A stretch of DNA of 58,445 nucleotides, counting the filler, from Sphacelaria rigidula (Eukaryota), in NCBI GenBank assembly GCA_964200075.2. It is 6 parts of 6 records of this genome, joined end to end, with 100 filler letters (N's around TTAATTAATTAA, not from the genome) between each part and the next. Parts side by side here need not be neighbours in the genome. Positions count along the whole stretch, not along the records: positions 29,276 to 38,932 come from CAXNAA020008018.1; 5 more parts are not named here. The stretch is one strand, 5' to 3'. The notes beneath the pieces were generated by a model. It was not told the DNA's origin. It ran no database searches and was given only the letters and a program-made list of their open reading frames with translations. Shown here one piece after another: positions 19,518 to 48,789 of the stretch. Numbering within the stretch: the stretch's first letter is position 1; every line of letters starts with the position of its first letter. A program made the position numbers and the translations under genes.

Positions 19518-20579
19518 ATCGACACAATATGTGGACCCACAACTTGTAGCGCGTCGGTCTCTTGTGATCCGGTGGGTTGTGGAACATCGAACATTGTTGT
19601 ACTTTTGCGATCTCGGGGCTGGTGTCAGGGTCAAGCTAGGCTCTTCCGCCACCAACGGGCGATTGTCGCATCATCGATGGTTGGTTCAAGCAACGGATAC
19701 AGTACTAGTCGTCACGCATAGAGAACTAGGGACAGAACGGTAATAAATAGCGGAGAGACTCCGGAACCATTTCCGGGGAGAAGGAGGCGTGGTCGTTGTG
19801 GCGACCGTGAAAGGCAAATGAGCGGGAAAAGAGCCGAAGGTGTGGGCGCCATAGTTGGAGTTGGCGCGTAGACTCCTTGCGCGCGATGTGCCGCATCAGG
19901 TACAGTGTAGAGAGCGATGGCCTAGCACAGGTACGTTCTCGGCCGATCGGTGGCCCAGATAAGGTACGATTGCAAAATAATTCCTGAATCAGGTATACCT
20001 GGGCTAAATTTGGCCTACAAAAGGTAAGCAGTTTCTGGAGGCGAGACGTCCGTTTTCGCGTGGCCACATCTCTCGAGGAACATGTTTTTTTCCCGTTTTT
20101 TTTCGAGGCCCGGGTGCCAATGCCCCCCCCCCCGAATGATGTTGGTGGGAAATTTTTGTTGGAAACGGTTAAAATGGGGTGTTTNNNNNNNNNNTATTTC
20201 GCGTTTCTGGCCATTTTTCGTACCTTCCTTGGGCAAAAAACAACAAGGTATACCTTTTCCAGGCCATTGCTCTTTTGGATATTATTCGATCCTTTGAAAA
20301 TAGTTTTTGAATATGTTTTTTGCGTTGGATTTCCGAGTGATGCAATTTGAAGCGCGTGAACATTGAGCAGAAGTTGTGTTCGGAATCCGCACTTATTTTT
20401 AGAACAATTTGAAGCCGCAGATTTGTCGAAATACCTTTTTTGCCCTTTTTAGCCCTTGGTGCCACCATGATGGACTATCAGTGGCGGTCAATATGATAAC
20501 ATGTATGCGACATTTTATTGACGGGAAAGGTATTGAGGAAGGCATTTGCTTTTGACAGATTTTTGCAAGGTTGTGTTCT

Positions 20580-21070
20580 GTAGGGTGTGGGTATGTTCTA
20601 TAGGGCATAAGATTCCTTACAGAAGCTATAGAAGTATCGGGTACCGGTATGAAAGTCTTACAGAAATTACACAACTTGTTGGGTACGGTACGGGAGGCTT
20701 GCAGAAAACCGTACCGGCAATCGGGTACTTTTTAAAGGGCATACCCGCGCTCCGGGTGCGGGCAATCATTAACAACAAAACTCACAAAACTGTCGGGTGA
20801 GGGTACGGGAGGCTTACAAAACTCACAAAATCTGTCGGACAGGGTATGGAGGCTGCACAGAAAACCGTACCCGCGACCGGGTATCTTCTCGATAGCGTAC
20901 CCGTGCCCCAGGTAATGTACGGGACACTTACAAAACTCCCAGAACCATCGGGTAAGGGTACGAAAGTCTCACACAGTTTACAGAACTGTCGGGTACCGGT
21001 ATGAAAGTGTCGGGTGTGGTACATACTCGGGAGAACACCCCGAGTATACCGAAAACCGTACCTTACAAAA
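20580..21070. repeat. Degenerate minisatellite-like repeat in the SF3A3 last intron
   Basis: Recurrent TCGGGTACCGGTATGAAAGT, GGGTACGGGAGGCTT, ACAAAACTCACAAAA and CAGAAAACCGTACC blocks. Confidence 0.75.
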
Positions 21071-21218
21071 CACAACATTGGATTTTTGGGTTGACAGGTT
21101 GAACCAGCCTGTAAAACATAGCTCTGCCCACCGTATATTTTTCTGTCGCCGATATTCTTGGAGATACAGAAACCTTGAAATGCACGCTTACTTCTTTCTT
21201 CCTGTTGCTTATTTTCAG

Positions 21219-21465
21219 GAATTTTGACCGACACTTCCAGGAGTGGCGCCACGCGCATGGCATGCGGTGCCTGGGTATACCGAACACAAAGCATTTCCAC
21301 GACATCACGCTAATCCAAGACGCACGAGACCTGTACGCCAAAATTAAGGATTCGCTTGACAAGGAACAATGGAATGCCGAGGATCAAGAGGAATATGAGG
21401 ATGGAGAGGGGAACGTGCTCAACCGACGCACTTACGAAGATCTAGCCCGTCAGGGTCTCATGTAG
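21219..21465 (+). CDS. SF3A3: Splicing factor 3A subunit 3 (SF3a60/Prp9), terminal exon
   Basis: Polypyrimidine tract plus CAG acceptor ending 21218; NFDRHFQEWRHAHGMRCLGIPNTKHFHDIT...EEYEDGEGNVLNRRTYEDLARQGLM* is the conserved SF3A3 C-terminus. Confidence 0.95.
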
Positions 21466-23587
21466 TATGGAGGCACACGCTGTAGTGCTGTTTGACTTAA
21501 ACGGCGTTGTAGTCACGTATTTTCCACAGCGATGAACGAGGGGAACGTACACTTCGAAGCCAAGCCAAGCACGTTACAAGAAGTGCTCCCGCACCCTCCA
21601 TCCCCCTCCCCCCTAGTCATATCCCACCATATTGACCTTCAGCGCGGCGTTGGATCGTTCTGACCGTGTAGGCTCTGACATGTGCTTTGTGGTGAACCAA
21701 GGATGGGAAACGATTGGAGACCGTATATGCAGATCTTGGCATGCTTGTTCCCGAGAGGCCATGATCTACGGGTGGAATAAGAATGGCAGGGTGTGCTGGA
21801 GCACTCTGCGGAGGTGTTACCGCATCGCGGCCGAAGCAGTAGTCGAGTAAGTGTTGGTACAATCGGACTTGATGGGGAAACCGCGTAGTCTGGAGGCCGG
21901 TGACGGTGGCTCTGGGTGGCACGTGTTCGATGTCAGTCTGCCTCGTCACTCATGGTGTGACTGTCCACCAAGGGATGTTGTCCGTTTGTGGGGTACAAGT
22001 AATGTCCCGTTGGCGAGCGGGGGGCCCAGGAAGTGTTGTGAAATGGTTGCTGTCTCGTTTCTTCCCTCCCCCCTCCCCTCCAGGATGAGGTAAGGTCAAT
22101 GGTCAGATGACTGTGGCATGCCAGATCATGAGTTCACCCTTTCCACGATGATACTCATTTTTGTCGACCTCGTGCGACCCAATTGCATCGAGCAGTTGTT
22201 GTGCGTCGCCGCTGCTTTGCCAGCTTCTTAGCGCGGAGAATCGAGATGTGGTGCCCAGATGGATGCATAATGCAAACACCTTCCGCCCGAAACTTTTTGA
22301 CTCTTTCACGGCCACGACGGGTCGTCTACAGAATCGGCATCGTTCTCACTTGAGAAACGACTCTCGAGACCCAGGTCGCCCACCCTGGTGGTTGCGGGTT
22401 TCATGTAACGGATGTAGGGGGACAATGACTGCTTCTGCGTTGACCCCCAGGGTGCACCATGCCTTGAGTTGGCATCATTTTTCCTCGAAAATGTCATGGG
22501 ATACCTAGCCCCCGTCTCTCGTCATTTTTTTTCCTTGATGGAAGGAGGAAACCCAACCCAACACTTACCTCGCAAGCGAACGCAGGCGATCGCCAGCGAG
22601 TTCTTGTGCCGATTACTCGAAGGCCCGGCTAGACCACCTCGCTGCAGTCATGTGGGGAAGGCGCCTCGAGCGGTGGCTTAAAGCAGTGTGGGGGATGCTC
22701 CCACTAAAACCTCTGATCAACTCGGCGTGGTGCACGCGTCGCTCTGCTCTCAAGAGCTTCGGCCGTAGCCGTGTCTGTCATGTAGCTGGTGCTATGGTCG
22801 GCCGACGGCACGGTCGCGTGCCTGCTGGGACCCTATACCGTATGCCGAGTGATTCTGCTCTGCGTTTGTATATATTCAGGGATACAGGATGCAGTCAGTA
22901 CAGGACGAATCTGGCATTTGAGGGCGATGCGCGACAAACATGGAAAACGTTCGTGGTCGATATGCCGATGATCACGACTTTCGCTGAACACTTGCTTTCC
23001 GGTTGAACGTGCAATGGCAATCCATGCACGGTCAACCGGAAACTGAACATGAACGTGAAATTTGTCGCGAAAGTACGTCAAGTCGCTGCAGCTATTGTGC
23101 AGCATCCAAGGGTCTGTCGAGAGAAAATTGTCGGACACGGAGGCCTTGCCCCCCCGTAGGGCAATTTTTCGAAAATTGTCATGATTTTTTTCGTGATTTT
23201 TTTGTTGATTTCGTAGAAAGAAATTGATCAACGTACTCTGACAAAATCCCAAAGTCTGGCGGGCTCCGCGAGATTCGTGTATATGCTTCTGCTCGTTGCG
23301 CGCCCTGACCCGATGACCTCGAATGGCGGCAACGCTTACACACCATCTGCTGTAGTGTATGTCTCGGCTGTATTTCTAAAGTTGTATCACTACGTTAAGT
23401 CCCGTGTGTCCATTACGGTGCTTTCCGTTACACAAGGCGTGGGTGCGTGGAAAATTTGTGATTACCGACATTCTTCGGGCAATTGGAAAAAGTCATCAGT
23501 AAAAACATGAGTTTAAAGTGTGCTTTCTCATCATGTACAATATTAAGAAGTGGATTGTCAATCAATTGTCACAAACCGGCTTATAAC

Positions 23588-24031
23588 ACGGGATCTTACA
23601 AATTGGGGACGCGTTTTTTGAATGGGGATGAGAAACCTCGAGAATGAAAAATTCGTATACACATCACATCTTCGAAATATGGTTCCACTTCTTCAACTAC
23701 TAATAGCTATTGGCATCTGCTACACGCCATAGAAATTTGGATTCCGATCACCGAAATGGTGAGGTCTTAGGGAAAAAACAATACCGGAACCATTATGGCG
23801 TCCGTTCCGACACCCGATATTCCCTTACATATTGGATTTTCACACCTAGAACGGTAACATTTCGGTAATGTGAATCTAAATTTTCATGGCGTGTAGCAGC
23901 TGTCAATAATAGCCATCAGTAGGTGAAGAAATGAGACCATATTTCGAACATGTGGTGTGGAGACGACGATTTTCATTTTCCGGGTTTCTTATTCCCGATT
24001 AAGGATCCATTCCCGATTTGTAAGATCCCGT
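23588..24031. mobile_element. Long-TIR foldback MITE, family A copy 2
   Basis: Termini ACGGGATCTTACAAAT...ATTTGTAAGATCCCGT; imperfect arms of ~190 bp. Confidence 0.8.
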
Positions 24032-25350
24032 CTTTCATGGACAATCCTTTTCGATACACGGAGGCGGAGTAGAGCATCAGCATATTCACGAGAATGAAAG
24101 GGAAATACTAATTTGGCCCTGATATGTAGAATAAATTTACAAAATAATTATTCGTAAGTTAACAAGCGACGACGCGCCGCGGCGATTAGTGGTGAGCTAA
24201 GTCGCGTCACTACTACTTCTCACTTGAAAGTGATACCGATTTACCAGAAGATACTCAGAGTGGAGAGGTTGAAATATGTTCCTCGTCGCCCAGCTAAGCG
24301 TCGTTTGCGGGAGCCAATTTCTTCACATCCCGCACACGCTCGATGAAAATTTCCCACGAACTTTTTTTTTTCCTTCCCGCGCGCGTACAAAATAATCGGA
24401 TCCCGCGCACAACCAATTCTTGAGGATGTGGCTCTGTTCGCCCACTGATAGCTAGAACCTGCTACACGTGGTGGACCCAAATTTTGATCACCGAAATGTT
24501 GAGGCCCCAAGTGATTGATGTTAATGCCGGGCGTCCGACCGGACGTCGAAATAGTTTCGAAACGGGTTCCGGTCCTCGCCTCCGCTCCCTGGCAAAATGC
24601 CGTCATAATCAAATATTTCGATCTGCCTCAAAATCAAAATGTAATCTTATATATCCAACGAGTGATTCATCTCCATCCTGTGCTGTTCACAGTGAACGTT
24701 CACTTCGTCTCGGGAGGGGTACCGCGGTACTTCTCCCCATGTTACCACGCTTGTTCATCTCAGAACAACGCATCAATTGAATCGGTCACGATCCGGCAGG
24801 TCACCAAAACATTGTCGTATCGTTCCATCACGTCATAATTTTCACCATGAGATCATATAATATTACAGAATATTCCTTGGAAACGTGCTCGTTAGGACAA
24901 AATGTTGCACAGCAGCACCGCCTCTCCCAAGGGAACGACATGCGCGCCAACTTTCCCACCAATGCAGCACAGAGTAACATTCCCACATATAGACATGCAC
25001 ACCACCTTCAGTGGTGGCACCCGTCACACACATTCAAACAAGCCACCATTCGCGCACAAGTTCACACCATCAACAAATGTAAGCCTAGGGCGGAAGGCCC
25101 CCGTACCGGTCACCTTCACGTCCAAATGAATGTATAGTTACAACGGTTCAACCGCAAAATCACACTGCCGTGGCCAAGTCAAGATGGCCTAGTGGCTGTT
25201 CGAAACGAGCCGCGTTTTACACGACAACTACCTACATGACACCAAATATCAGGGTCTTTCGACTTTGAACTTTGATTTGTCCGCGTCAGATTCGCATCCA
25301 CACGATCGCTGCGTACAGCTAATTGATACAAGACGTCAGCATGTCACCCT

Positions 25351-28177
25351 CTAGAAAAAGTATGACAAGCTACCGCTGGGGAGACGGTCGTCGGATACAA
25401 CCTCGAACACGTCGGAGCATCCGAAAACGACGTCATCGGAGAACTCCCCCACACGAATGCTGTAAAGCCCTGACGGCGTGCCTTCGGGGATCTCCACGTC
25501 GTAGTCTCCACCTGTTGACACACATGGCGGGGTGTGTTATGAATGTTACATCATGGGCAGCCGTGTGCGTAGCGTCAAAGTGTCATATATTCTCTATAAC
25601 ACCTCAAGTGAAAAAGTGGTCGCGATATAGAAGGTGTGCATTTCAATTTCACCAACGTGCAAAAGGCGAACCAAACGTCATACTCACTGGTATCTTTGCA
25701 GCCGATCGTGGGCTTGTCGCAAATCGAGGTGACCCACGTTCCGCAGTCGCCGGAGCCACCGGCTCTGTACAGGTCGATCTTGAATCGGCCAACAGATGAT
25801 CCAAGGCCGTCATTGTAGTCGAACTGGGGGCAACATGTTTTCATCAAATTCCGGCAGTAGAGGATAAATTATCAAGTGTCAAGCGGTCAAGTGGTGATTG
25901 CTTCACTATGGCTCTTCGCGGAGCCCAATGTGCCTCATTGGTAATTTGCCAACGGCCTTTCGATGTTCAGGAGTAGAATATGCATGTGTTCTTGTACGCC
26001 CGTGACCCATCGAGGCACGGAAAACCACATCACGGGGGAGATTTGGTGAATTGAAGGCGAGACAGGTTATAGCTGCCCTCCGGCTCACGACATTGTCAAC
26101 ATCGATGGAATCAAGTTGGATGATGTTGACGGTCGAGAATCGGCGAGTGCCGTCAATCCTCCTCGCATGTGCACGCTGCGACGTCAACATGAAAACTGAC
26201 CTCGACGGTGTATTCATCACCAGCCACGGCAACATCACCCTCTTGCGGGTTAGTCACGTACAGGTGGGGCCCATCCTTCGTCATCCAGTTGGGTACGTCC
26301 TCCGACTCGAGAAGGTAGAATGAGTCGGAGCAGTCCGCGTTTGACTCGTCCGACACATCTGCGACCCGGACCTGGATCGGGGGTCGGGACACCGCAGAAC
26401 AGCGCAGACCACGACATATTATTGTTGCGGTCACATCAAAAACCCATACATATCTACGCGCAGTATTTCTACTGATCTCTGATGCGGACGCCTTCCCTGG
26501 TCACTGGCCACTAACCCCCCTCGAACAAGACCCGATTTCGAATAAAAATCGCGATGCAAGTAAACGGTGCGCATCATGAAACAACCGTTCCATTTTGGCC
26601 AGGGTGATTGCTTCATCTCTGGTCTCTCTTCAGTTCCATGCTTCGCTGCTCACCTTGTAACCCGAGCTGGAGACTCCGTCAAGGGGCTGGGGCATGACGA
26701 TGTCGTAGTCACCTTCGTTGTCCGGACAGCCATCCTCGCCGTAAGGGCAAAGGGCAGTTACCCATTCTCCACAGTCATCCTATTTATCAAGATGTCACAT
26801 TACAGACATCGATTGGTGAATATTCCGAAATATCCTGGCAGCGATGGGCCCAGGACATCATCACGCTGACGATGGTATCTCAAGACGAGAGACCGACATC
26901 TTGACCTCATAGTCGAGAATCGCCCGAAGATACTTCACGCAGTGACTACGAGGCACCGAGTCGGAAACGCGGCGAGTTCCACAAGGTAAATTCCAAATCT
27001 TCGGATCCACGCTGTAAGTGAAACCTTTTTTCACGTGTGACACACTAGCCGTCAGATCGTGGTGATGAGAGTCAACAGTATCATCATAATTCCGTGAGAG
27101 ACAACACTACACCAAACGCGCGTCCGGGTCACTGATATACTTGCATGGCGCGCATATCCGTGTCCATCCTCGGTATCAACAGTGAGCTCGGTCTTCGTTT
27201 TGTTCATATGTACCCACCTCTGTGCAGAAGGACCCACAGTAGTAGAGGTCGATTTCGACGCGTGTGTCATCTCCGGTGCCTTCCCACTCCACGGTATAGG
27301 TGCTGGAGGGAGTACAGGACAGGACGAGTATGAGGGGTGGAATAGAAGTGGGTTCACTCCACGGCAGCTGTCGCAAGCTCTTCGCATTCGCGTTTTCGTC
27401 AACCATCTCAGGGATATAGTCGGCCATTATTCGAATCGTGTACCCCACGACCTTCAGACAGCCGTACAAGTAGGGATAGTCCGTCTTGGTCATGACTCAT
27501 CATACATCGATATCGATTCAGGTGGGGACCTGCCCTCATCTTCCAAGGGTTCCGGGGGATCAGGTTTCAGGATGGGGTGTCTTGGGTGTTTCAGCGATGT
27601 GTACAGTGCAAGGCTCGAGAGTTCGCCCTGGACGCTTGGGATCAAGCCTCGGAGAACCGTACGTGACCCGATATCCATGTTCACCTCGACGTTTACGGAG
27701 GGGGAGTTGAGATGGGATTGAAATCAAGGAAGCAATAAATTGCAGAACGTCCACACACCAAAAACACGATGCCTGCGCCGGGGCGTATCTGCCGAAAAAA
27801 TTGTTCGGGGAGCGCACGTTGTCGATTGTCAAGTTCCATTACCGTCGTGTTTCCCCCTCACGATGGGCTGACATACCCAAGATGACCTACTGCACAAATT
27901 GGTAGGAAGCTTCCGTGTCCTCTCGGCTGCATGTGGTGTTGCATACGCGGCAGTTATGATACGTTTTCACTCCGCTGCATACCACTCTGCACACGTCCAC
28001 GATACGTACGCCAACACGGCTCCCCCTCTCTAGCATCAACACAATGCAGGTGGCAAGTTCGTACCTGTCGGCTTTAACCATGTCACCTTCGACAGGCGCC
28101 GTCACCTCCAGGGCAGCGCTGAATGATGCGCTGATCATGGCAGATACAGCCACCGTCACGAACGCGAAGCGAGCCAT
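25351..28177 (-). CDS. Secreted protein, 263 aa, with two Cys-rich Ig-like repeats (Kre9/Knh1 N-terminal-like); exons 28177-28065, 27302-27218, 26779-26654, 26371-26201, 25823-25688, 25511-25351
   Basis: Six GT-AG exons total 792 nt in frame from ATG to TAG; hydrophobic N-terminus MARFAFVTVAVSAMISASFSAA; repeat pattern VTxPxEGD..YTVE..IDLY..DCGxWVTxxC..GDYD..YxxRV..CSDxF occurs twice. Confidence 0.85.
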
Positions 28178-29106
28178 CCTACTAGCGTTCGGTTTGCTAA
28201 GAGGCAAAGATGGATGAAGATGGTAGCGTGGCAGAGAGTTCGTTCGAGGTATGTAGAGGTTTCGGATGGTGGTAACGCTGAGGATACTTGAGGATGTGAT
28301 CTAGGTGGGGTGGGGGGAGGGGCTAATTGCATTGGTTGCGGCGGCGCAACATATTTGAGAGACCCGAGTTTGGGCCAGAACACCTCACTCCTTCCCTACT
28401 AGCGCATGTAATCCGCAGGGGGGCTGGGAATGTGACCCGCTATCTGTCACTGAGTAGGACTTTTTTCATCAGCTGGACTATGAGGTACTAGGGACACGAA
28501 ATATTCACGGTCTGTTTCGGAGGAACCATGTGTCATTCCCCTGAACTGACTGCAGAATGCCCACCATGTGCCCTGGGCACATGATCCGTCAAGAACATCA
28601 CACCACTCTGCTGTCTGTGCTATCTGCACATATAGAGACACACCCTACCTTTCTCATGCAACGCTATGCATGAAAAATACGATAAACACGTCGGCCGAGA
28701 GGAATCACAGGAGGGCTCCACGTTTCACAACTACAGGGCCATCACCTCCCTGTCCCTCGCAAGCTCAATCCCCAGACGGGGATACGTACAGGTCATCTGT
28801 TTATTCGGCACCATGTTCACTTGAAAAATAAAATAAAATATGCGTGAGTCAGATGGGCCACCCTCGTGGTCTAGGAGTTCAAATAGGCCAGTCTGGGCTA
28901 CAGTAAACTTTGAATCAAAGTGGCAGTGGCAAATAATTCCGTTTATTTCGCTCGTTTTCCGCCCTGTCTGTAACAAGCATGTGTTATTCTCGATCATGCG
29001 GAAAGAAGATTGAGGGGTCCTTTTCAGGTGCAATAGAAAGTCAGTGCAGAGGTTACCCCATCACGCCAAAATCCCGATTGTCGCATCAATATGACTCAGT
29101 TTAGTA

Positions 29107-29175
29107 TTAACCCTTAGACCGCGAGGTTAGTCTTCTGTTGGATTGGCATCAATTTCAAGTGAAAAAAAGTATGCA
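29107..29175. mobile_element. TTAA MITE copy truncated by the contig end (degenerate copy also at ~28765-28882)
   Basis: TTAA-CCCTTAGACCGCGAGGTTAGTCTT...AATTTCAAGTGAAAAAAAGTATGCA is nearly identical to 46270-46335. Confidence 0.85.
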
Positions 29176-29275
29176 NNNNNNNNNNNNNNNNNNNNNNNNN
29201 NNNNNNNNNNNNNNNNNNNTTAATTAATTAANNNNNNNNNNNNNNNNNNNNNNNNNNNNNNNNNNNNNNNNNNNN
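29176..29275. other. Artificial contig linker
   Basis: N44-TTAATTAATTAA-N44. Confidence 0.97.
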
Positions 29276-29351
29276 AGTGTGGAGAAGGCACTGTTTTAGG
29301 CTTGAACCTCATCTCGGAGTTAAACCTCAATTCGCACAATTTGTTATTACA

Positions 29352-30480
29352 ACATTCTTCGAGTGTAGCAGAGTAATGCCGCTGAGCATGATTGAAACGC
29401 TGACTGAAATACGCTACGATTGCAGTTTTGCCCCCTTTATCTTGGGTGAGCACCGATCCAGCACCCTCTCCGGACGCGTCAACTTGAATGGTGAACTCCT
29501 TTGAAAAGTCTGGGAAGTGAAGGACAGGAGTGGTGGTGAGAAGTCTTTTTACTTCGGCAAAATCTGCATCGTGTTCGTGATTCCAGCGTTTTGCTACTTC
29601 CTTGGCTGCCTCTTTTTCGTTAGATCTACCAACGGGGCGATGACATGTGCGAGATTCGGAATAAATTTTCTCACAAAATAAATCGTCCCTAACACTGAAC
29701 GTAATTGTTTGATGTTCGTTGGTGTAGGTAAATCTAAGATGCCCTTTACGCGGTCTTCCCCAATTTTGATCCCGTCAGCGGACAAAGTGTAGCCGAGGTA
29801 CTTGACCTCCTTGGGACCAAACTGTGCTTTAGAGGGCTTTAGGGTAAGACCTGCTTTTTTCAGTGCTTTGAACATGTCTTCCAGTAGAGTGAGGTGACTT
29901 TCCCATGTGGAGGAGCAGGCGATCAAATCATCCATGTACACCAACAGACCGCTCCTGGGCCCAAGGTGTGAGAAAGTAAGAGCCATTATTCGCGAGAACC
30001 GGGAAGATGCCAGGCCGAACGGTAGCCTGTTGAAAACCCACTTACCTTTCTCTGTAACAAAGGCCGTTTTTTTTTTCTCCTCCTCCGCTATTGGGATCTG
30101 ATGGAACGTGCTCTGTACATCAAAGACAGAGATAAATTTGGCGCCTGCCACCGTATCTACATGACTGTCCAAACTAGGCATTGGCCACGACTTGCGCACA
30201 AGACGTTTATTGGGCGTGGATCTGTAGTCAACACAAAATCGGGCAGTACCATCATGTTTAGCTACGATCGTCACACCCGAGCCCCATGGGCTGGGTCTCT
30301 GTTCGATTATTCCGTCTTTTTCCATCTCCTGTACACAGTTGTCGATGACTTCTTGAATTCTGGGGTTGGCTCTGTACGGGGCCCGATCGATGGGCTTGGT
30401 GCCCGGGACAAGGGGAAAAATGCTTCCCCAATTGTACGAAAACCTAATCTCGTTGTGACAGTGAGAAGACGGACCTGTAT
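29352..30480 (-). pseudogene. pol: reverse transcriptase and RNase H (frameshifted)
   Basis: SPWGSGVTIVAKHDGTARFCVDYR, KTAFVT, LPFGL, YMDDL, YLGY; after a frameshift PVLHFPDFSKEFTIQVDAS...VAYFSQRFNHAQRHYSATLEEC. Confidence 0.93.
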
Positions 30481-30553
30481 TTGATGCATAGGTCGAGCAC
30501 TTGGCTCTTCTGATTTTCAGAAAACGTGCTATCTTTAAATGCATTTTGGAGCG

Positions 30554-31954
30554 CTATTGTAAGATCTTTTCGGGCGTCAGTATTTTGCCGTTCAGCTTGT
30601 GAAATTGCACTGACGTTTTCCGTCGGGTTATTTGTTTCAACTTGTGAAAGTTCACCGGCGTTTCCCGTCGGGTCATTTTTTCGACTTGTGTGATGTGTCC
30701 CAAAAGTAAATTTCTTGGGAGTTGGACGTGTCTATTCGACGGGTTCGCTACTTGTACCATAGCTGTTTTGTTGACCGCTGACCAGGTGCAGGCTGTGCGT
30801 GCTACAACGAGGCGGCTATAAGCATCCGGTACTTTGTTGGATTGAAGGTCTTCACTCGTTACAATTCTTGGCTCAATAGCCGCTTCAGTCGTAAATTTTG
30901 GCGGCTCATTTGTTTCGACCAAGAGAGCCATCTTACTTCGCGGCGGGACGGAGCATCGTTTTGAGAGGTACAGCGGTACATTTTCAGCCGATGCTACCCG
31001 TATGACAGAACAATAATCATATTCTGAAAACTTCGGATGAACTTTTCTGTGTCTTCTTCGATGAGTACCTGTCAGGCGAACTGTTGAACTACGAAACGCC
31101 AGGGTTTCTTCCTGCCAATCGAGAATCCCGCCAAATGCGCTCATCATCGAACTTTTTATCAGCATGAGATCTGGCCCGAGATTCCTGAGGACAAATGCTT
31201 CAACGGGCAAGGTTATGTCACCCAGCGTGAGGTCAAAGCGAATGAATCCCTTTATCGTTGTTGGGGAACCGTTAGCACTTCGTAGATCTATAGAACGTGA
31301 TGGGACGGATTTAATGTCCTGCTCTCTCAACTTAGAATGTGCACGAATGAACTTGAGACTGAATATGGGAAGATCCGGAGCGGTATCAATGGTTATGGCC
31401 GGAACCTCCATTCCGTTGACTCTGGCGGGAACCTGCACTCTAGCTGATGCAGGTCGTAACGTTGCCGGCTTCCTAGGGTAGCGGGCCAACGAAGACATGA
31501 AGAACGGCTCGAATTCTGCCGAGCCTGGGGGCAAAAAATTGGATCTGTGCTCTTCATTATTTTTCCGAGACGTCTTGGTTACAAAAGCAGCTTTGGGCGC
31601 AATTTTCAGGTGGCGATGCTTCCCACGTAACATCTGATCTTGACCTGTTGTATTCCTCACTTGCTCTTTTGTTCTAGCCGTTGCAACTGTAACCCCTTCC
31701 ACATGTACTTTCTTACATGACCTCACAGAAGAAGCTACGCCTTGACTAGCAAACAGCGCACGTTTCTTGCCCTTGTTATCTCCCACCAGAGGGTCGGCAC
31801 CCATTTCGTGGTGCACATTATTTTCCCTCGATTTTCTGTCCTTCTGCGCCACGCTTGCTACCTTGAAAACTTCTCCGACAGCCTGCACGGTAGTTGCTCT
31901 TTTCGCTTTTACACGTGCCCCTTCGCTGGGCGAGGGCCCCTGCTCTGGGCACCA
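30554..31954 (-). pseudogene. pol: retropepsin aspartic protease region
   Basis: ARVNGMEVPAITIDTAPDLPIFS (D-T-A active-site-like motif), LRSANGS flap, ILDW. Confidence 0.8.
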
Positions 31955-33980
31955 TCAAACACCTAACGCTAACAGCTGCTCTTTATGTTTCTTCGCTAGT
32001 TGACAGTCGTCTATGGAATGATTGTGTTTGAACCTCCACGGCTTGTATGTGCAACACTCGCCTCTCTTCCTTGATTGACTATCAATTTTTCCACGCCCTC
32101 TACGCTCTGACCGACTACGTTTTGCGGTCTCACTGGGAGAAGGTGATGGGCCCGTTTTGTCCCCCGGGTGTGAAGAACGTCTTTTCGACCTGCCGCGGCC
32201 TCCACCAGCCCATCGTTTTTCTCTCAACAATGTTTCAACTTGCTGCCCTTGATCGGCAACTGTTTCCGCGAGCTGAGACGAGTTGTGTATGGCGAGAGAT
32301 GAAACGTGGGTCGGAGAGGGATTGAAAATTTCTGGCTGAGTCCCGCGCAAATTGTTGGTTTCGTGTTTTTTGGCGCGAGCTCTTGCAACCTGAAAGTTAT
32401 GAGTTGAAACTTCGCGTACTGTTTCAACCCTGATATGTGGCGACACTCCTGCTTCAAAAGCAGCCGTCTGACTGGCTTTCCGTGCGAAGCTAACGGGATC
32501 CCTACCATGTGGCGTGACTCGTGCGGCTTCTGCGTAAAAACGCGAGTGCGCCTTGGACACTTCTAGCGCGTAGGAGTCTACAGTGTGGTGGTCCTTAAAT
32601 TTGAGCTCCGCTATAGCCCGGGCCAGGATTGCAATGCAATTGGGTGGAGAGTATAAATTCGTATAAGCATCGACCCACTCGCCCCATGATGCGGGGGCCC
32701 TGGTAGATACCTCACCTCCTTGTGCCCGAAGGGCTTCGAGATTCGCCTCTGTCCGCAATTCTAAGGTACCGGTTACGAGATCCGTGTACGCGTCTAGAGC
32801 TGTGTCCCTCAGTAGGAGCTGTAAATGCTTGATGCATCGGCGATCGATTTCCTCTCGCGTGCATTGATCCTGCGAGTTAATTTCAACTCGGGACCGGTAC
32901 TGTCGCATTATCGTTGGAATGTCTTCAGTTCGTAGTTCTTCTCAGAACCATGTTAGAACCGAGATCGTTTGTTTTGATCGTGAATCGAGGAGTGTGTACT
33001 ATATTGTCGATAGCACTTGACCGATTCTGGTTTTCATGCGAGGGGGTCAAATTTGGTGCCCCTTGGGGTGAAAACTTACCACCAGGCACGTGAGGTGATG
33101 CCTGAGGGCTACTGATCACTTGTTGGTTCGTAGGGGATGCGTAACCTACGTTGCTTGGGTGAAGTTGGGCGGAAGTCAGCGAGGTTTGAGAGTTTGTGCC
33201 GGGCGAATGATTTGGTGCAGTGACTTGATCTACTACATTATTAGTTGCCCGGGACAATCGAGGGGGCGTGGTTGGTGCCTGCACACTTTGAGAGCGTGGC
33301 GGCGTCGTGTCATTAGGTGCATGATCCCCGCGAGGTAGATGTACCGAACTACCCCTCACTATCTCTACCTCTAAATTTGGCTGTTCTACTGCCGCCCCAT
33401 TGTTCACCTGGTGTACTTGCTGGATCACATCCTGAGGGGAGTCCAGCATCCCCAGCGCTCGCAAAGCGCACTGAGGAGGATCCGTCCCCTTGTCGAAGTG
33501 TTGTTCCATAGTTTTCAAGGCTACAATGAGAGCTGCCTGTTTGATGTGTCCCGGTACCGGGTCGGAGAACGTGACGGCTCTCGATGAGGGGGTCCTGCCC
33601 ACGTTTTCGGGATCCGTGTCGCCGAGGCCGGAGTTGCTTTTATCCTCCTCGCGGAGGAGAGAAAAACGGTTGCCCCTGTCGCTGGGAGCGTTGCCGGCCT
33701 GGGAGCGTTTTTTTTCCCTCAGGGTTGCGCGCCCTCTTCTTGCCTTTGTCGGAATTTTTCTCCGAGGGGGACGAAGGAACCCCAGGCTAGACGAGGACGA
33801 GGGCGCGGCTAGCGTGGACGACGAGGAGGTCGCGGGCGGGGCAACTGATGTTTCCGGGGCCGGTGCCTGTGCTACTTGAGCAAACGTCGGCTGGGCAGAG
33901 GACGACGAAGACGCGCCTGCGCCTGCGCCCGTTGACCCGCCGCTGCTGCTTCCGCTATTTTTGTTGCTGTTCCTCCCCAT
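31955..33980 (-). pseudogene. gag-like polyprotein (two ORFs, frameshift near 32920)
   Basis: First ATG after the PBS at 33980 (MGRNSNK...); S/P-rich N-terminus, helical capsid-like part, C-terminal Cys/His knuckle-like CCTYKPWRFKHNHSIDDC. Confidence 0.65.
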
Positions 33981-34040
33981 GATGAACGATGTATAATGGG
34001 GTAGAAAAGAAAAATCCGAGGGTCTCGCACACTTGTCTGA

Positions 34041-34055
34041 AACTGGTGTTCGCCA
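34041..34055 (-). promoter_or_regulatory. Primer-binding site
   Basis: Minus strand reads ...TTCCACA-T-TGGCGAACACCAGTT: TGG 1 nt after an LTR-like CA end, complementary to a tRNA 3' end ...GGUGUUCGCCA. Confidence 0.65.
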
Positions 34056-34056
34056 A

Positions 34057-34371
34057 TGTGGAAGTCGTGAGACTCCCGGTGACGGTAGAAACCGTCGAAG
34101 GTGGCCGATGATTTTCCTCGGGTTGTGTAAAGGATTGACCGTAAGTCGTGGGGTTGAGGCAAAGTGGATCACTCGGGAAAGCTCGACAAGCGCGAGCGAG
34201 TTAGCCCGATGACGAAGTCTGAGAGTCTTGGTCAAGAGTGATCCCCAGGGATAGCCAGCAGTTCGCTGGGAAGATCCCTGTTACTTTGGGGTCCCAGATC
34301 CGGCTGTACAGATATGGAAGTTTTGGGGCTCCTGCGAACTTCCCCCTGTAACAGCCGTTCACTAGGTTACA
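34057..34371 (-). repeat. Putative 5' LTR (~300 bp; outer end at 34353 or 34371)
   Basis: TGT...ACA termini lying between the PBS and a truncated MITE; the second LTR is not available for confirmation. Confidence 0.55.
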
Positions 34372-34680
34372 TGTCATAAAAGGAAATCTCTCCGCACATG
34401 CCCAAATGGCGATCTCCACATGAAAAACCAATTTTGGGGAATTCCGGGTTTCCGAACGGACGCCAAAATGGTTCCGAAGTTGTTTTTTCTCCTTGGACCC
34501 CAAAATTTCGATCATCGCAATTCAAATTTGTATGGCGTATAGCAGTTGTCAAAAGCTACCAGTGGGTGAAGAAATGGAACAATATTCTGAAGATTTTGTG
34601 TGGACACGAAGATGTTAATTCGCCGGGTTTTTCATCACCTATTAAAGATCCATCCCCAACTTGTAATATCCCGTGTTAAT
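34372..34680. mobile_element. Family A foldback MITE copy 3, truncated by the retrotransposon
   Basis: Reverse-complement similarity to 23585-23850 (CCGAACGGACGCCAAAATGGTTCCG; end TTGTAATATCCCGTGTTAA). Confidence 0.75.
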
Positions 34681-36213
34681 AACGATGTAACGGTCTTCCA
34701 TGCCAGAAGACAGAAGGTATGCAATATGGTTGCATGAAACCCCAACGCCACCCACGAGGACAGATGGTCCAAACGCGATAGCGCCAGCCGGAGTAATAGA
34801 CCTCGCGCAGCACAAAGTACGGCTGTGCAACGGTCAGACATGATCAACCCCCAATATAGAGGTGGTGTCGTGGGAACGTACAGCACAAAGCGCAGGATGA
34901 GATATGCCTTAAGATGACAGCCCACAAAGCGACAGCCTATATCGGATGTGTCAAAGTAACGGCCCCCGCCTACCCTACGCCAGGAGTATGTATAACGGCG
35001 GGGTACATGACATCCTCATCGCCGTTATGGAATGATCAAACCGCAGTTTGGTGCCGTATAAACGCGTACGACAGAGTACAGTAGCGTGCACGGCATGAGT
35101 TTACCCTTGACAAGGGCTGAAAATATCATGATCACACGCAGTGCAGAGGAGTAGGTGAACACATCCCCACAGGACCTGACGGTGCCTGTCCGTGAACACA
35201 GACCGTGGACGAGGGCATAAGTGAGGTAAATGTGCCGTCGTTTTCGTCTTATTATTTCAACTTAACCGTAGGTTTGCTATGATGCGGTGCAAAATATCTA
35301 CTGCAGGTGTGGCGTGAAGACTGCTGCCTCACGGAGAGTCAGCCATGCACTCTGGCCGGGGTTACAAAACACCGACGGGTCGAACACTTCGTCATACTCG
35401 TAAAGTAGAGAGCCTTCGAAACTTCTTTTCTCCCACGTTCCATTCGCACGGGTCTGAAAAACACACTTTGGGCGAATCGTTTTACTCACAAGCCGTAGGA
35501 AAGCAACCATTTCTTGCCCAAAAAACGTCAAATAAATGTAAATCGTCCATTCTTCATCAACGGTTCCAAAAGGGTTAATCGACGATTTCACGTGCAATTA
35601 GATGAGGGCACTGATGCTGGGATCAGAGAATCGAGCATAACGGGCGCCAGACCTCCCACTAGCTTCATCTCTCCATTCTTGCACTCAGTACTTAGTATCT
35701 GAGACTGGAAATACTCACTACACCATCAAGACAAATTTGGACATGAGTTGCAGTACAAATAGGAAGTCCACCAGTAGCGTCACGGTTCATCGGGGGATCG
35801 ACTATTTCAGTACATCCACTTTTGACCGACGCGTGGAGCACGTGCGACGCGTGGAGCACGTGGCCATCGCACCTATACCCATGTTCAGACGAGATCTTCG
35901 TGAGACTTAGGCGTCGGATATCAGGTCCCCACAACCTCACGAACACCTTTGCGCGATAAAAAAAAACGCACTCTACCAACCGCCCCTCGTCTAAACGTGC
36001 CAATGGTACACGCTAGCGTATGCCCGCAAACGCTGCGCCGAATCTAAACGTCAATCTTGGAACCGGTAGCATTATTCGTCACCCGTCGGACGTCCAAGGA
36101 GGGACGCTAGACACTCCTAGCTCCAACTTCAAGTTTGAATTATCGGCTTCTTCAGCTTGCAAACAATCAAACACACCAAGGCACCCACACACCGCAGCTG
36201 ACGACTCACGGAG

Positions 36214-38932
36214 CTACCTCGTACCCGCACCGCTACCACTGCTACTGGAGCTACCACCATCATTTATGCTGCCCGTACCACTTGAGTTGGAAGCCTGTTC
36301 CTCACACTCGCTTGCCCAAGGGCACCAGTGCGTTGAAAAAGGGACGGCCGGCTCTACCTTTATTCCTGTCACCGCCCTCGCCTTTATTCCTGTCACCGCC
36401 CTCGCTTCTGACATGACTTTGCCATCAGACCTCGAGGGTATCTGTGCTGAGAGCAGCGGTAGTGTTGCATCATCCCGCCTTGGACCGGGGCACATACTAC
36501 GGCGAGTATCGACAACAGCATTTGAACCAGAGCCCGAGCAAGCTGCGCGTTTGCGTTTTATTCCTCGTACGTCGGCAACGCTTCCTCCTTCATCTTCCGT
36601 CGGGCTACGGCCGGATGTGGCTACGCTGATGTTAAGTTCTGCGGTGTCGCACACTGCAGTTGTGTTGTGTGTGGTAGTATGCTGTCGACAGCACCATGCC
36701 TCATCCAGGGTGTATCTCTCGGAGATACCCAGCTCGGAGCACCCCTTCATGCCGGAGTAACCATGTCCTACCCCCGCCATTCCCACCTTGGCATACTGAA
36801 AGCAGAACTCGGCCCTCTTGCTCCCCGCGACACCATGGGATGGTTGCTTCAGACAGCCCTCGTCGCCGCACCTCTTCTTGACATTTACCATCCCAGCCCT
36901 GACGTGCTGGGCGCAGAACTCCACCTTCTTGCTCCCTGCGACACCATACGACGTTTGCTTCAGACAGCCCCCATCGCCACACCTCTTGATAACTACGTCT
37001 ATCACTCCCGCCCTGGCGTGCTCAGCGCAAGCGTCCGCCTTCTTGCTTCCTACTACACCATACGACGGTCGCTTGAGACAGCCCTCGTTGCCGCGCCTCT
37101 TGCTTACCCCGTCCATCATTCCCGCCCTGGCGTGCTCAGCGCAAAACTCGGCCATTTTGCCTCCTGCTACACCATACGACGGCTGCTTGAGACAGCCCTC
37201 GTCGCCGCACCTTTCCTTCACCACGTCTACCATTCCCGCCCTGGCGTGCTCTGAGCAGAGCTGCGCCTTCATGCTTCCCGCTATACCACGCGACGTTCGC
37301 TTGAGACAGCGCTCATTTATGTACCTATTTTTTATATGTGCCATTCCCGTCTTGGCGTGCTTTGAGCAGAACGCAACCTTCTTGCTTCCTGCTACACCAT
37401 ACGACGGTTGCTTCAGACAGCCCTCGTCGCCGCACATCTTGCTCTTAACATTCGTCATTCGCGCCCTGGCGTGATCAGCGCAGAACTCCGCCTTCTTGCT
37501 TCCTGCGACACCATATGATGGTTGCTTGAGACAGCCCTCGTCGCCGCACCTCTGCTTGACATTTACCATTCCCGCCCTGGCGTGATCAGCGCAGAACTCC
37601 GCCTTCTTGCTTCCTGCGACACCATATGATGGGTGCTTCAGACAGTCCTCGTCGCCGCACCTCTTGTGCACAACATTCATCATTCCCGCCCTGGCGTGCT
37701 CAGCGCAGAACTCCGCCTTCTTGCTTCCTGCGACACCATACGACGGGTACCTCAGACAGCCCTCGTCGCCGCACATCTTGCTCTTTACATTCGTCATTCC
37801 CGCCCTGGCGTGCTCAGCGCAGAACTCCGCTTTCTTTCTTCCTGCGACACCATGCGATGAGTACTTGAGGCAGCCCTCGTCGCCGCACCTCTTCCTTACC
37901 ACGTCTATCATTCCCGCCCTGGCGTGCTCAGCGCAGAACTCCGCCTTCTTGCTTTTTGCTACGCCATACGATGGGTGCTTCAGACAGCCCTCGTCGCCAC
38001 ACCTCTTCTTCACCACATCTATCATTCCCGCCCTGGCGTGCTCTGCGCAAAACCCCGCCTTCTTGCTTCCTGCGACACCATACGACGGCTGCTTGGCACA
38101 GCCCTCGTCGCCGCACCTCTTGTGCACCACATTCGTCATTCCCACCCTGGCGTGCTCAGCGCAAAATTCCGCCTCTTTGCTTCCTGCTACACCATACGAC
38201 GGTCGCTTGGCACAGCCCTCCTCGGCGCACCTCTTCCTCACCACGTCCATCATTCCCGCCCTGGCGTGCTCAGCGCAGAACTCCGCCTTCTTGCTTCCGG
38301 CGACACCATATGACGGGTATCTCGGACAGCCCTCGTAGGCGCACCTCTTCCTCACCACGTCTATCATTCCCGCCCTGGCGTGCTCAGCGCAAAACTCCGC
38401 CTTCTTGCTTCCTGCTACACCATACGACGGCTGCTTAGCACAGCCCTCGTCGCCGCACCTCTTCTTCACATGTACCATTCCCGCCCTGGCGTGCTCAGCG
38501 CAAAGGTCTGCCTTTTTGCTTCCCGCTACACCAAACGATGGGTGCTTCAGACAGCCCTCGTCGCCGCACCTCTTGCTCACCACGTCCATCATTCCCGCCC
38601 TGGCGTGCTCAGCGCAGAACTCCGCCTTCTTGCTTCCAGCTACACCATATGACGGGTATCTCGGACAACCCTCGTCGGCGCACCTCTTCTTCACCACATC
38701 AATCATTTTCGACCTGGCGTGCTCAGCGCAGAACTCCGCCTTCTTGCTTCCTGCGACACCATACGACGGCTGCTTGGCACAGCCCTCGTCGCCGCACCTC
38801 TTCTTCACCACATCCATCATTCCCGCCCTGGCGTGCTCAGCGCAGAACTCCGCCTTTTTGCTTCCTGCTACACCATACGATGGGTGCTTCAGACAGCCCT
38901 CGTCGCCACACCTCTTGCTCACTACATCTATC
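36214..38932 (-). CDS. EsV-1-7 cysteine-rich repeat protein, 5'-truncated, at least 19 repeats
   Basis: Open frame of >900 aa; 37-38-aa repeats C-X4-C-X16-C-X2-H (KRCGDEGCLKHPSYGVAGSKKAEFCAEHARAGMMDVV), the EsV-1-7 motif of brown algae and phaeoviruses; low-complexity tail. Confidence 0.93.
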
Positions 38933-39032
38933 NNNNNNNNNNNNNNNNNNNNNNNNNNNNNNNNNNNNNNNNNNNNTTAATTAATTAANNNNNNNNNNNN
39001 NNNNNNNNNNNNNNNNNNNNNNNNNNNNNNNN
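38933..39032. other. Artificial contig linker
   Basis: N44-TTAATTAATTAA-N44. Confidence 0.97.
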
Positions 39033-40515: not shown

Positions 40516-42599
40516 GCAAGCAGTACAGACAGTACAATGAGTTAAGCCACAGTCGAGACGATCTGACAAATGCGTGCAAGGTCAAGCGTGCTCGAGGTAT
40601 GCCAGCACTGCTTCCAAAGTTCAAAGATTGCGAGAGCATACAGTAGGGATATATACATATATATATATATATATATATCGCATGTATCGCGGTCGCTACT
40701 CTAGTAGCTGCCAGCGTACACCACGTCCGAATCATGAGGGCACACGAGTAGCCGCCACAAACACGTTTGAGCCAAGACGTACATGCTCGTACTGTGTATT
40801 CCCTTGACTCGTAGCCCAACACCGGTCAAGGGTTCCGCAGCACTATTTTTTATCCAGATGCTCAACATCCCCGTGTTGGTGTAAATAGGCATTGTCTTTT
40901 TGGACAGCTATTCTGAACCCAAGATGTACTACAGATGTTCTGAAAGCGACCTGCGGGGGGTAGGAGCCTAACGGGGCCAGTCATACAGATGGCCTTGGAT
41001 GCCTGGCTAGTTTGGGGGGATTGGAATTGTTGTTGTGGTGAAAGGCTTCCACGTAGAAGTAGTTCTGGGCCCGCCGGGTCTTTGCCACGCACACGCATTT
41101 ATCCGCGTTATACTCATTGTCAGTAAAGCTAGCACAGCACAGAGTATTGAGCAATCTCGATGGAATGCGTACGAGTTGCGAGTGCGGAAAATGTGCTGAC
41201 GGAGTCTTGAGCGTATACAGCGGGGAGTCCCATGCTGTGTGGTACAGACAGCCCCCCAAAACTCCAACCCGCTCCGCTTCACCATGGGTGTAGTCTATAC
41301 ATTTGCGATACAGTACGCCAAGAAAAGAAGAGTTGATGTCTACGTCTAGTACCCAAGAGCCATAACAGGGCCATTCAAATATAGAATCGTCATACTCCGC
41401 CCGAGCATGTCAGGCCCTGTTCTCGGAACAGAAAATCTTGAGTGCCCTAAGAGTTAACCCCTTCAGTACCCGTTCGCCGACAGGCCGTTTTGTTTTTCCA
41501 TCGGAAATTCGAAATTGTTGTGTTGGCGGAGGAGTCAATGCTTTGATGTAAATGAGGGGCTCCGGACCGGCCAGGCCATTGCCACGCACAGCTCGTGGTA
41601 ATTTATGCAGTGCTCGGAAATGGTACCAGTGATAACTGGCCATTATCATCATAATGATGATGATGGTGATGGTTATATGAAAAATTCGGATAATGGTTTG
41701 AAACCATTATTTAAGTTCAACTTTAACGTATTTTTGAGCTCTATAGAAGCCAACTCACGCGAAAACGTGCCTCCGGTGGGGCCCCCTCTGCGGAGAGGAA
41801 GGGCTTTTTGGCTCGCGGCTTCGCCGCTTGATGACCAAACCATCATGTACCATTCAACTGGGTAATGGTTATACATGCCATTTCCGGGCGCTAATTTTCT
41901 GGTGATGCTTGCACACTACCAGTAAACTGCTATCCCTTTGCGTGCATGTCCGCTCTTGTAAGTGTTAACGACAATGCTGGAGGAATACGAAGGCGTACAG
42001 GGCGCAGTCATCCTCTTCGCCATAAGCGTTGCACAAACACAACCTAGATTACAACAACAGCACGAACTTGGCTGCTCAACCGTGTTGAGCTGCTGCGATC
42101 CTGTTTGTTGTGAAATGACGTACAGAACGCGAAAGCCTCGGCACTCGAGCGTCCCGCTACGGTCTTCCTCGTGTACAATATCGACATCCTCCATGGGACT
42201 GATCAGGAGCCGCAGTAGGTAGGCCGCGGGTGCTGAAACGATCAACCCTGTGACCCCAGGGGTGACCATCTGTTGAATCGACATTACTCTTACCCCTCCG
42301 AAAAATTGAGACCCAGGTACGCGATAATACGGTGTACACGACCCGTACGTAGTGTACGACACCTCCTCTCATGGGTGGGTTCTAAAAAACGGGAGTAAAA
42401 AGTTCTCGATGGTGTTGGGAATTGTGGAAAATTATTATTATTGTTATTTCCGTACATAAGTTCGACCTCTCGAACCCGTGGTCACAGACGTACTGTAGGC
42501 TCGTCTTTCCAATATCGTCCATACTACTCTCACGAGAGAAGAAAAAATCTATTTCTTCCGTGACCCTTTTAGGACCGGACGCCCGGAAACATGGTGTTT

Positions 42600-48689: not shown

Positions 48690-48789
48690 NNNNNNNNNNN
48701 NNNNNNNNNNNNNNNNNNNNNNNNNNNNNNNNNTTAATTAATTAANNNNNNNNNNNNNNNNNNNNNNNNNNNNNNNNNNNNNNNNNNNN
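48690..48789. other. Artificial contig linker
   Basis: N44-TTAATTAATTAA-N44. Confidence 0.97.

Follow-up and report, generated by a model that had tools for sequence, protein, structure and literature searches.

A long, incomplete EsV-1-7 repeat array from Sphacelaria rigidula with unit differences consistent with near-neutral drift

The stretch of DNA analysed here (58,445 nucleotides from Sphacelaria rigidula, GenBank assembly GCA_964200075.2, hereafter the window) carries on its minus strand an open reading frame that encodes a tandem array of EsV-1-7 repeats. We consider it probable, with some reserve, that this array is a long and incomplete member of the EsV-1-7 family and a putative polyanion binder, that the differences between its units are near-neutral drift and that it holds no code in which one repeat reads one base. 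An initial annotation of the same DNA had proposed that a few variable positions per unit form a modular recognition code like that of transcription activator-like effectors (TALEs) or pentatricopeptide repeat (PPR) proteins. Such a code is not supported by the tests of selection, codon paths, descent, fold and family-wide variation presented here.

The frame, the array and its units are located as follows.

36214-38932, minus strand: open reading frame fragment of 905 sense codons (36217-38931) followed by the stop codon TAG (36214-36216); 5' end open, without a start codon.
38933-39032, no strand: artificial linker of 44 N, TTAATTAATTAA and 44 N, which interrupts the array.
38917-38931, minus strand: partial unit IDVVS (columns 34-38), the tail of a further upstream unit.
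36763-38916, minus strand: EsV-1-7 units R01-R19 in tandem, 111 or 114 bp each, with predicted zinc ligands at columns 3, 8, 25 and 28.
37441-38916, minus strand: well-kept block R01-R13, with a scaffold ratio of non-synonymous to synonymous change (omega) of 0.22, which carries the diversity at columns 9-11 (L/A/P, K/R, H/Q/Y/R).
36763-37440, minus strand: degenerate block R14-R19, scaffold omega 0.61, its triplets exclusively LKQ or LKR.
37216-37329, minus strand: R15, first Cys replaced by Tyr.
36988-37101, minus strand: R17, first Cys replaced by Arg.
36763-36876, minus strand: R19, His replaced by Tyr.
36679-36762, minus strand: possible remnant of one more unit (GYSGMKGC...CCRQH), 28 amino acids, which looks like a decayed unit.

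The units run from R01 (38803-38916) to R19 (36763-36876), fifteen of them 38 and four 37 amino acids long; the ligand pattern C-x4-C-x16-C-x2-H is complete in 16 of the 19, and all four ligands are kept in every unit from R01 to R13. At least 19 tandem repeats of 37-38 amino acids in one uninterrupted frame had been described, without the strand, and this description is confirmed for the minus strand, as is, letter for letter, the accompanying list of 19 triplets behind the second Cys. The assignment to the EsV-1-7 family was also right: Pfam PF19114 (EsV_1_7_cys) matches in 19 stretches with 891.6 bits against a cut-off of 25 (E 2.4e-276), and Tandem Repeats Finder reports a period of 114 with 18.8 copies, 82% matches and a score of 2548. 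Because the first five residues, IDVVS, end another unit, the array holds at least 20 units, and since the frame enters the N44-TTAATTAATTAA-N44 block at 38933 the gene is incomplete, its 5' part being absent beyond that linker. A six-frame scan of the whole window with a hidden Markov model (HMM) of the array units found no copy outside the array; the stretch 36679-36762 is missed by the repeat HMM, and its BLASTP alignment to a unit of the homologue P0002 is not significant (E 8.5). The array also scores against Pfam DUF1490 (PF07371, an actinobacterial family of unknown function; 76.3 bits against a cut-off of 28.4, for example at residues 17-49), a match that we set aside as probably a summed compositional cross-hit, its individual stretches all lying below threshold.

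The description of the repeats as near-identical holds at the protein level for R01-R13 and fails for the rest, DNA identity between units ranging from 67 to 96% and R15, R17 and R19 having lost a ligand. The closest units by DNA are R03/R06 (96%), R02/R05/R08 (92-95%) and R01/R09 (93%), and R14-R19 are 67-82% identical to most other units. Divergence among units amounts to 0.44 at synonymous and 0.165 at non-synonymous sites, and the uniformity of the units at the protein level is therefore not due to youth alone.

Changes between units were counted by Fitch parsimony on a maximum-likelihood tree of the 19 codon-aligned units, a tree that ignores exchange between units. The 97 inferred amino-acid changes are spread unevenly over the 38 columns (variance/mean 1.92, chi-square p 6e-4), and the counts per column are stable across 200 bootstrap trees. 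Three columns are hot, namely 38 (10 changes), 34 (8) and 11 (7), which together take 25 of the 97; Shannon entropy is highest at columns 34 (2.25), 38 (2.21), 11 (1.89) and 35 (1.58). Variation had been said to concentrate in the triplet after the second Cys and in the linker, and to the extent that it is over-dispersed this was correct, but the six columns named account for only 34 changes, the remaining 63 lying elsewhere, mainly in R14-R19. The triplet as a variable unit reduces to a single hot column, 11, with two changes at column 9 and one at column 10, and the V/K split at column 37 reflects a one-codon deletion in the 37-residue units and no substitution.

The scaffold of the array (32 columns) is clearly under purifying selection, its omega being 0.29-0.33 over the whole array, 0.19-0.22 in R01-R13 and 0.61 in R14-R19; pairwise Nei-Gojobori estimates of omega are 0.29 for the scaffold and 0.62 for the six variable columns. 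The neutral rate was taken from 14 four-fold sites, whose mean of 2.36 changes gives 5.1-5.9 changes expected per hot codon, and relative to this rate omega is 1.37 at column 11 (P 0.26), 1.44 at column 34 (P 0.20) and 1.70 at column 38 (P 0.075). Over all estimates the hot columns range from 1.2 to 1.7 (P 0.075-0.39), none significantly above 1. A binomial test that takes account of how few synonymous changes there are, with 12 four-fold sites retained under a stricter filter, returns P 0.17-0.39 for single hot columns and P 0.14-0.17 for the three pooled. Over the array's 19 units, entropy and dN/dS show uneven variation and a constrained scaffold, and hot columns that evolve at about the neutral rate.

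The residues found at the hot columns follow short mutational paths. Column 11 is encoded by CAC, CAG, CAA, TAC and CGA, all five linked by single steps, and because transitions from His and Gln codons yield only Tyr, Arg or stop, the H/Q/Y/R set comprises what CAN codons reach in one step, mostly by transition, in other words what mutation supplies first. At column 34 the seven codons are again linked by single steps, six of them (ATG, ATA, GTA, GCA, GCG, ACG) by transitions alone, and the residues are limited to M/I/V/T/A, which are hydrophobic or small. The reuse of AKQ and PRY reflects descent via a duplicated block, since outside codons 9-11 the AKQ units R02/R05/R08, like the PRY units R03/R06, are most closely related to one another. 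LKQ probably came first, because at column 11 the family most often has Q or R.

A search of 5.8 billion clustered proteins (7999 scored candidates) gave 115 homologues at E <= 1e-5, the nearest of which is 50% identical over 47% of the query; the named ones come from Sphacelaria, Ectocarpus, Ascophyllum, Scytosiphon, Hapterophycus, Choristocarpus and Nannochloropsis, and the best named ones are brown algal. The HMM built from the units finds them in 114 of 116 proteins, with 19 in the array protein and 12 in the next, and 3050 proteins match at E <= 0.001 among 1.84 billion representatives, the best 150 of these 3050 showing a maximum of 14 stretches. None of the homologues examined has an array as long or as uniform, their maximum being 12-14 units. 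No match came from tblastn of phage records, nothing was found by a single-protein query of viral contigs, and a search for longer proteins with the repeat profile A1 gave none at E <= 1e-5. In the part of a preprint accessible to us the EsV-1-7 family is described as massively expanded and tandemly clustered in brown algae (Denoeud et al.). The accessible literature counts 2018 EsV-1-7 proteins in 31 brown-algal genomes, with up to 335 per species, among the largest gene-family expansions there.

Column-wise variation across the family was compared on 527 of 680 domain hits that are near full length, 153 partial hits having been dropped. Within the 45 homologues that have at least six units column 11 shows the largest within-protein difference (0.80), many other columns reaching 0.57-0.67. 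Six close protein pairs (63-84% identical; orthologues or recent paralogues) provide 32 in-register unit pairs, in which column 11 differs in 6 of 32 (0.19, about average) and column 9 is the fastest (17 of 31, 0.55); between-pair and within-protein variability of the columns are correlated (Spearman 0.73). In 45 collinear proteins fused to the nuclease-like domain described below (405 units), about 20 of 37 columns differ by at least 0.7 between homologues at the same array position, and column 11 (0.73) lies outside the twelve most variable. Over the wider family 19-20 of 37-38 columns vary, and because this is about half of them the family taken together does not show a TALE-like pair of code positions. 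The concentrated variation of the present array looks like an early stage of the family's broad divergence.

Zf_WRKY19 (PF24906, a land-plant zinc-finger model) matches 16 of the 72 aligned members, for example P0007, P0008 and P0012 (best E 9.8e-9), and the Pfam families Zf_WRKY19 and EsV_1_7_cys may overlap; land plants are said, in the portion of the literature available, to lack EsV-1-7 proteins. Other weak HMM matches that recur among the 72 are to the zinc-binding domain of coronavirus (CoV) nsp13 (8 members), SBP (6) and zf-primase (3).

An AlphaFold2 model of six units (R01-R06, aligned with 71 other sequences and metal-free) has a mean predicted local distance difference test score (pLDDT) of 93.2 and a predicted template modelling score of 0.67. 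In unit 1 of the model a strand at columns 14-16 and a bridge at column 24 precede helical residues at 26-28 and a strand at 33-35; the third Cys and the His are predicted to sit at this one-turn helix (columns 26-28), and the C-x4-C knuckle and columns 9-11 are modelled without regular secondary structure. The other five units repeat these elements with small DSSP differences, so that DSSP assigns two three-residue strands and one three-residue helix to each unit and no helix of four or more residues to the model. The six-unit model is regular and confident, and its unit is not a helical repeat. What had been called the linker is, in the model, partly within the fold, where columns 33-35 form the closing strand. 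In a model of the whole protein pLDDT is below 50 from residue 464 onward, and we think that the alignment gives out here, the aligned homologues having at most 12 units; helices at 223-237 and 252-261 over R07 in the same model (blocks of pLDDT 52-62) are read as an artefact of a low-confidence stretch.

Foldseek against BFVD, a comparison in which both sides are predicted, matched the model to EsV-1-7 of Ectocarpus siliculosus virus 1 (Q8QNQ2) with E 4.4e-27, a template modelling (TM) score of 0.67 on the query, a root mean square deviation of 5.7 over 230 columns and 52% identity. Other viral counterparts in BFVD come from marseille-, pitho-, cedrat-, klosneu-, faunus- and Tetraselmis viruses, and of the 29 BFVD matches at E <= 0.001 altogether four are named endonuclease and one DNA primase. 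No solved counterpart was found: Foldseek of the six-unit model against the PDB returned no match at E <= 0.001, with B-box, LIM and PHD entries at E >= 1.9, and VIA-align against 48161 PDB chains peaked at Z 3.1 (a RING domain), RING/B-box-type fingers having Z 2.0-3.1 over 38-43 residues. When VIA-align was applied to the 31 rows of Foldseek (30 aligned), none had Z >= 2. Sequence searches of the PDB reached a best E of 0.75 with the array protein, nothing with repeat profile A2 and one match at E 0.36 with A1, and the ESM Atlas search gave no usable match.

The repeats had been described as basic, and indeed the net charge of the array is +51 and its isoelectric point (pI) 9.22, while family repeats (n = 508) carry +2.7 per unit on average, 86% of them being net positive. 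A conserved non-repeat block follows the units in the majority consensus of homologue alignments, and the EsV-1-7 array is found fused to a conserved C-terminal domain: the motif E.DE..H and then R.NPD stands behind the array in 60 of the 115 homologues of the array protein, in 18 of 125 further representatives and, among the relatives of P0113, in 108 of 116, which makes 186 of 356 proteins in all. The domain is about 120 amino acids long (RPD...E.DE.QH...R.NPD; residues ~440-572 of P0113, and also present in P0060) and has no Pfam annotation. Invariant in alignment A4 are E460, D462, E463, Q465, H466, E485, R488, R505, N507 and P508. Pfam matches to it are all below threshold, among them DUF2726 (E 0.0012) and Hjc (E 0.22), both of nuclease type, and it is a probable nuclease of the Vsr/PD-(D/E)xK type. 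In I-Bth0305I, according to the available part of its report, separate DNA-binding modules are linked to a catalytic domain of Vsr-like type (PMC3239194). Binding of nucleic acid by the array is plausible, and DNA is the most likely putative ligand, the charge, the fused domain and the weak matches to nucleic-acid-related zinc modules agreeing on this and being silent on any code. The binding is argued by association only, because neither the array protein nor the 18 named brown-algal homologues have the fused domain.

Compared with the EsV-1-7 family as known from PF19114/IPR043822 (EsV-1 gene 7, IMM and brown-algal families), the array has the same C-x4-C-x16-C-x2-H tandem units of about 38 amino acids and no other Pfam domain; it differs in having at least 19 units as against at most 12 (114 proteins) or 14 (best 150 of 3050) and in units far more alike than those of its relatives. 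IMM (IMMEDIATE UPRIGHT), in the accessible part of its description, consists of a unique N-terminal domain and five repeats and has a biochemical function reported as unknown, and none of the Ectocarpus members is said there to carry another Pfam domain. The giant-virus and metagenomic proteins that join an array to a nuclease-like domain (P0113, P0060) belong to the same repeat family, with an N-terminal array of 7-13 units, but many viral units are of the C-x2-C...C-x2-C type, and the tail of the present protein lacks both E.DE..H / R.NPD and any Pfam match.

In the C2H2 arrays of PRDM9 and KRAB proteins zinc modules follow one another in minisatellite-like tandem, few positions vary on a conserved scaffold, and evolution proceeds by duplication and exchange of units; in this the array resembles them. 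However, its units are CCCH, modelled as a hairpin with one helical turn; no beta-beta-alpha unit and no Pfam C2H2 match was found, and its variable positions show no significant positive selection (omega 1.2-1.7, P 0.075-0.39, a test of low power). TALE, PPR and PUF proteins are built from all-helical, zinc-free repeats, which the array recalls by its unit length (33-38 amino acids), by its near-identical units and in that a modular reading can be imagined. Unlike the TALE and PPR repeats, the six-unit model has no helical hairpin, containing no helix of four or more residues, and variation is not confined to one or two positions, the three hot columns holding 25 of 97 changes. The first zinc site of the plant SBP domain presumably has the identical C-x4-C-x16-C-x2-H spacing. 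Its ligand order, Cys-Cys-Cys-His in the accessible part of the source (PMC6407117), is common to both. The SBP profile (PF03110) matches array residues 46-79 weakly, over profile positions 1-34 of 75, with 15.9 bits and below the 27-bit cut-off, and the six weak matches among the 72 family members reach a best E of 0.0021; SBP differs in its second, interleaved zinc site and in a finger that is not tandemly repeated. No SBP chain occurs among the Foldseek and VIA-align rows, methods by which small-domain matches are often missed.

The array could be a modular DNA or RNA reader in which each unit contacts a base or short motif via column 11, which precedes the conserved Pro, perhaps together with column 38, and in which duplication and shuffling reprogramme specificity, the nearest analogies being PRDM9/KRAB C2H2 arrays and TALEs. 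Column 11 is indeed hot (7 changes), with polar, hydrogen-bonding side chains; it is the most variable column between repeats of the same protein in the 45 multi-repeat homologues, and in the six close protein pairs only 6 of the 32 in-register repeat pairs differ there. Within R01-R13 dN at columns 9 and 11 (0.72) exceeds the dS of the whole array (0.345), but dS at those codons is equally high (0.77), and at no column or pooled set is omega significantly above 1 (P >= 0.075). The strongly conserved scaffold (omega 0.22), the regular and confident geometry of the modelled units and the viral relatives that join such arrays to a nuclease-like domain would suit a reader. Its vocabulary, however, is a mutational neighbourhood, columns 9 and 10 have scarcely changed, column 34 is hydrophobic and inside a predicted strand, and six consecutive units have Q or R alone, with three units lacking one zinc ligand. 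In close pairs the fastest column is 9 (17 of 31), not 11, and in the nuclease-like-fused arrays (405 repeats) column 11 is not in the top twelve among the ~20 of 37 columns that vary by at least 0.7. With the reuse of AKQ and PRY explained by descent, 19-20 of 37-38 columns varying in the family and a unit predicted to be non-helical, we regard a TALE/PPR-like code at fixed positions as decidedly unlikely.

Alternatively the array may be a protein-protein or structural scaffold like the LIM, RING and B-box zinc modules, its variable positions being mere surface residues and nucleic acid no ligand at all. The sole resemblances to solved structures are of this kind (RING/B-box-type by VIA-align, B-box/LIM/PHD by Foldseek), and the accessible literature shows a nucleic-acid ligand for no family member; those structural matches are, however, far below the level that allows any conclusion, and the net positive charge kept across the family and the recurrence of the nuclease-like fusion in 60 of 115 and 108 of 116 relatives both favour nucleic acid. 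We hold this scaffold role to be unlikely. It might also be that the stretch is no working gene as given: it could be a paralogue in decay, or the assembly could have fused many near-identical units that belong to a large set of paralogues. Within the window the frame lacks a 5' end, constraint is relaxed and ligands are lost in R14-R19, and a retroelement with a reverse transcriptase lies 1.9 kb downstream. In addition, 1511-1738 contigs per sequencing run are at least 90% similar to the array, 957-1103 of them only 90-95% alike, and summed word depth, ~30-100 in the flank, climbs to 15000-35000 at 38348-38449, which is up to several hundred times the value for the single-copy flank. Because contig number and summed depth over the array far exceed the flank, the genome sampled by these runs contains a great many units with 90% or more similarity to the array. 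Yet 905 codons run without a stop, scaffold omega is 0.22 and all four ligands are intact in the 13 N-terminal units. The 3' 1.4 kb of the locus is present in ten sequencing runs from four studies, and 35911-37213 (about 1.3 kb of the 3' part) is reproduced exactly by contigs of four runs from three studies. The contigs over the locus offer neither a usable start or end nor a splice, and for some parts of the array they include no long exact piece. A decayed or chimeric gene appears to us most improbable.

The array has grown as single units, and at least once a block of three, were duplicated, and its C-terminal units are decaying, three having lost a ligand in a block with scaffold omega 0.61. 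On the reading that we prefer, its most likely ligand is a polyanion, probably DNA, bound along an extended basic surface, and the brown-algal proteins that consist of an array only would probably be nuclease-free binders of nucleic acid that serve, for instance, in regulating genes, a role proposed for IMM. What sets one unit apart from another is best explained as near-neutral drift: it affects the three positions under least constraint, in an array that is fairly young, and follows single-nucleotide, mostly transition, paths.

Several observations tell against this preferred account. The point estimates of omega at the hot columns exceed 1, also within R01-R13 (1.4-1.65, P 0.14-0.32), and with 19 short, recombining units the selection test has low power, so that diversifying selection may yet act there. 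At column 11 the old units R14-R19 have Q or R throughout, with 1 change, despite divergence at other columns, and column 11 is therefore unlike a fully unconstrained site. Units that share a triplet resemble each other no more than other pairs do (0.826 against 0.827, permutation p 0.51), so that block duplication as the only cause of triplet reuse is rejected; descent accounts for AKQ and PRY and leaves LKH and LKQ unexplained. As to binding, the nuclease assignment of the fused domain is weak, all Pfam matches being below cut-off; phmmer of whole P0113 against PDB sequences found nothing and left the domain unmatched, and the A4 profile against the PDB gave only four matches (E 0.07-0.09, ribosomal protein L37), all in the repeats. 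The fused domain occurs in none of the 18 named brown-algal homologues, in none of the seven closest matches (P0002-P0008) and not in the array protein, and the accessible EsV-1-7 literature contains no binding assay or structure for any member. Finally, the order of units R01-R13 is without independent confirmation, given the many contigs per run that match the array at 90% or more.

That no ligand or code is established for the family, as had been remarked, agrees with the EsV-1-7 literature as far as it was available, in which we found no statement of ligand, structure or recognition code. The family includes a developmental regulator and its expansion is among the largest of the brown algae. 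More than half of the sequence relatives join the array to the nuclease-like domain, which offers a concrete DNA-targeting hypothesis for the whole family, and the uniform scaffold with few variable positions makes the array a convenient construct for first tests of zinc, DNA and RNA binding. In its boldest form, to which we attach very little likelihood, the idea would be that EsV-1-7 arrays form a third class of naturally occurring modular DNA readers: giant-virus arrays would aim a Vsr-like nuclease, brown algae would keep nuclease-free regulators, and in the present young array column 11 (H/Q/Y/R) with the linker residue would set the specificity of each unit, so that duplicating and exchanging units would reprogramme the target. 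Should drift be all that happens, as the tests suggest, the array would be an ordinary member of its family.

Behind the last units the protein ends in a tail with the following features.

36217-36678, minus strand: non-repeat C-terminal tail, pI about 7.
36547-36558, minus strand: KRKR in the tail.
36358-36405, minus strand: exact 24-bp tandem duplication encoding ARAVTGIK twice, directly before IKVE.
36352-36363, minus strand: IKVE in the tail.

A Pfam scan of the tail gave no family, BLASTP against the homologues P0002 and P0003 nothing significant (E >= 1), and the E.DE..H / R.NPD motif is not in the array protein or its tail. KRKR-type motifs occur in 13 of 103 tails against 2.9 after shuffling, and psi-K-x-E...W in 9 of 103 against 3.1; these are leads only, and no nuclear signal is claimed. 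An exact 18-bp repeat, present twice, lies in the 3' flank at 35827-35862.

The window consists of six pieces of 9656-9659 bases each, and pieces flanking a linker need not be linked in the genome. The interruption of the array at 38933 may therefore result from the way in which the window was put together and is not necessarily a natural contig end. Five linker blocks, each of 44 N, 12 bases and 44 N, stand at 9660-9759, 19418-19517, 29176-29275, 38933-39032 and 48690-48789; the 12 bases at 38977-38988 are TTAATTAATTAA, the letters having been read at this linker only. The stop-to-stop frame of the array on the minus strand spans 36214-38976, its first 15 codons being all N, and at 905 codons the array frame is the longest in the window, the second (466 codons) being part of a retroelement. 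Remnants of this element occupy 29220-34280 on the minus strand as a chain of long open reading frames broken between frames, 1.9 kb downstream of the array gene; the one at 29597-30553 matches the reverse transcriptase family RVT_1 (E 4e-23), and the element reaches the piece boundary at 29275. A Pfam scan of nine other open reading frames of the window found a family in none. Runs of 10 N separate from the linkers occur at 14591, 20185 and 47555, and an (AT)15 microsatellite lies at 40649-40678.

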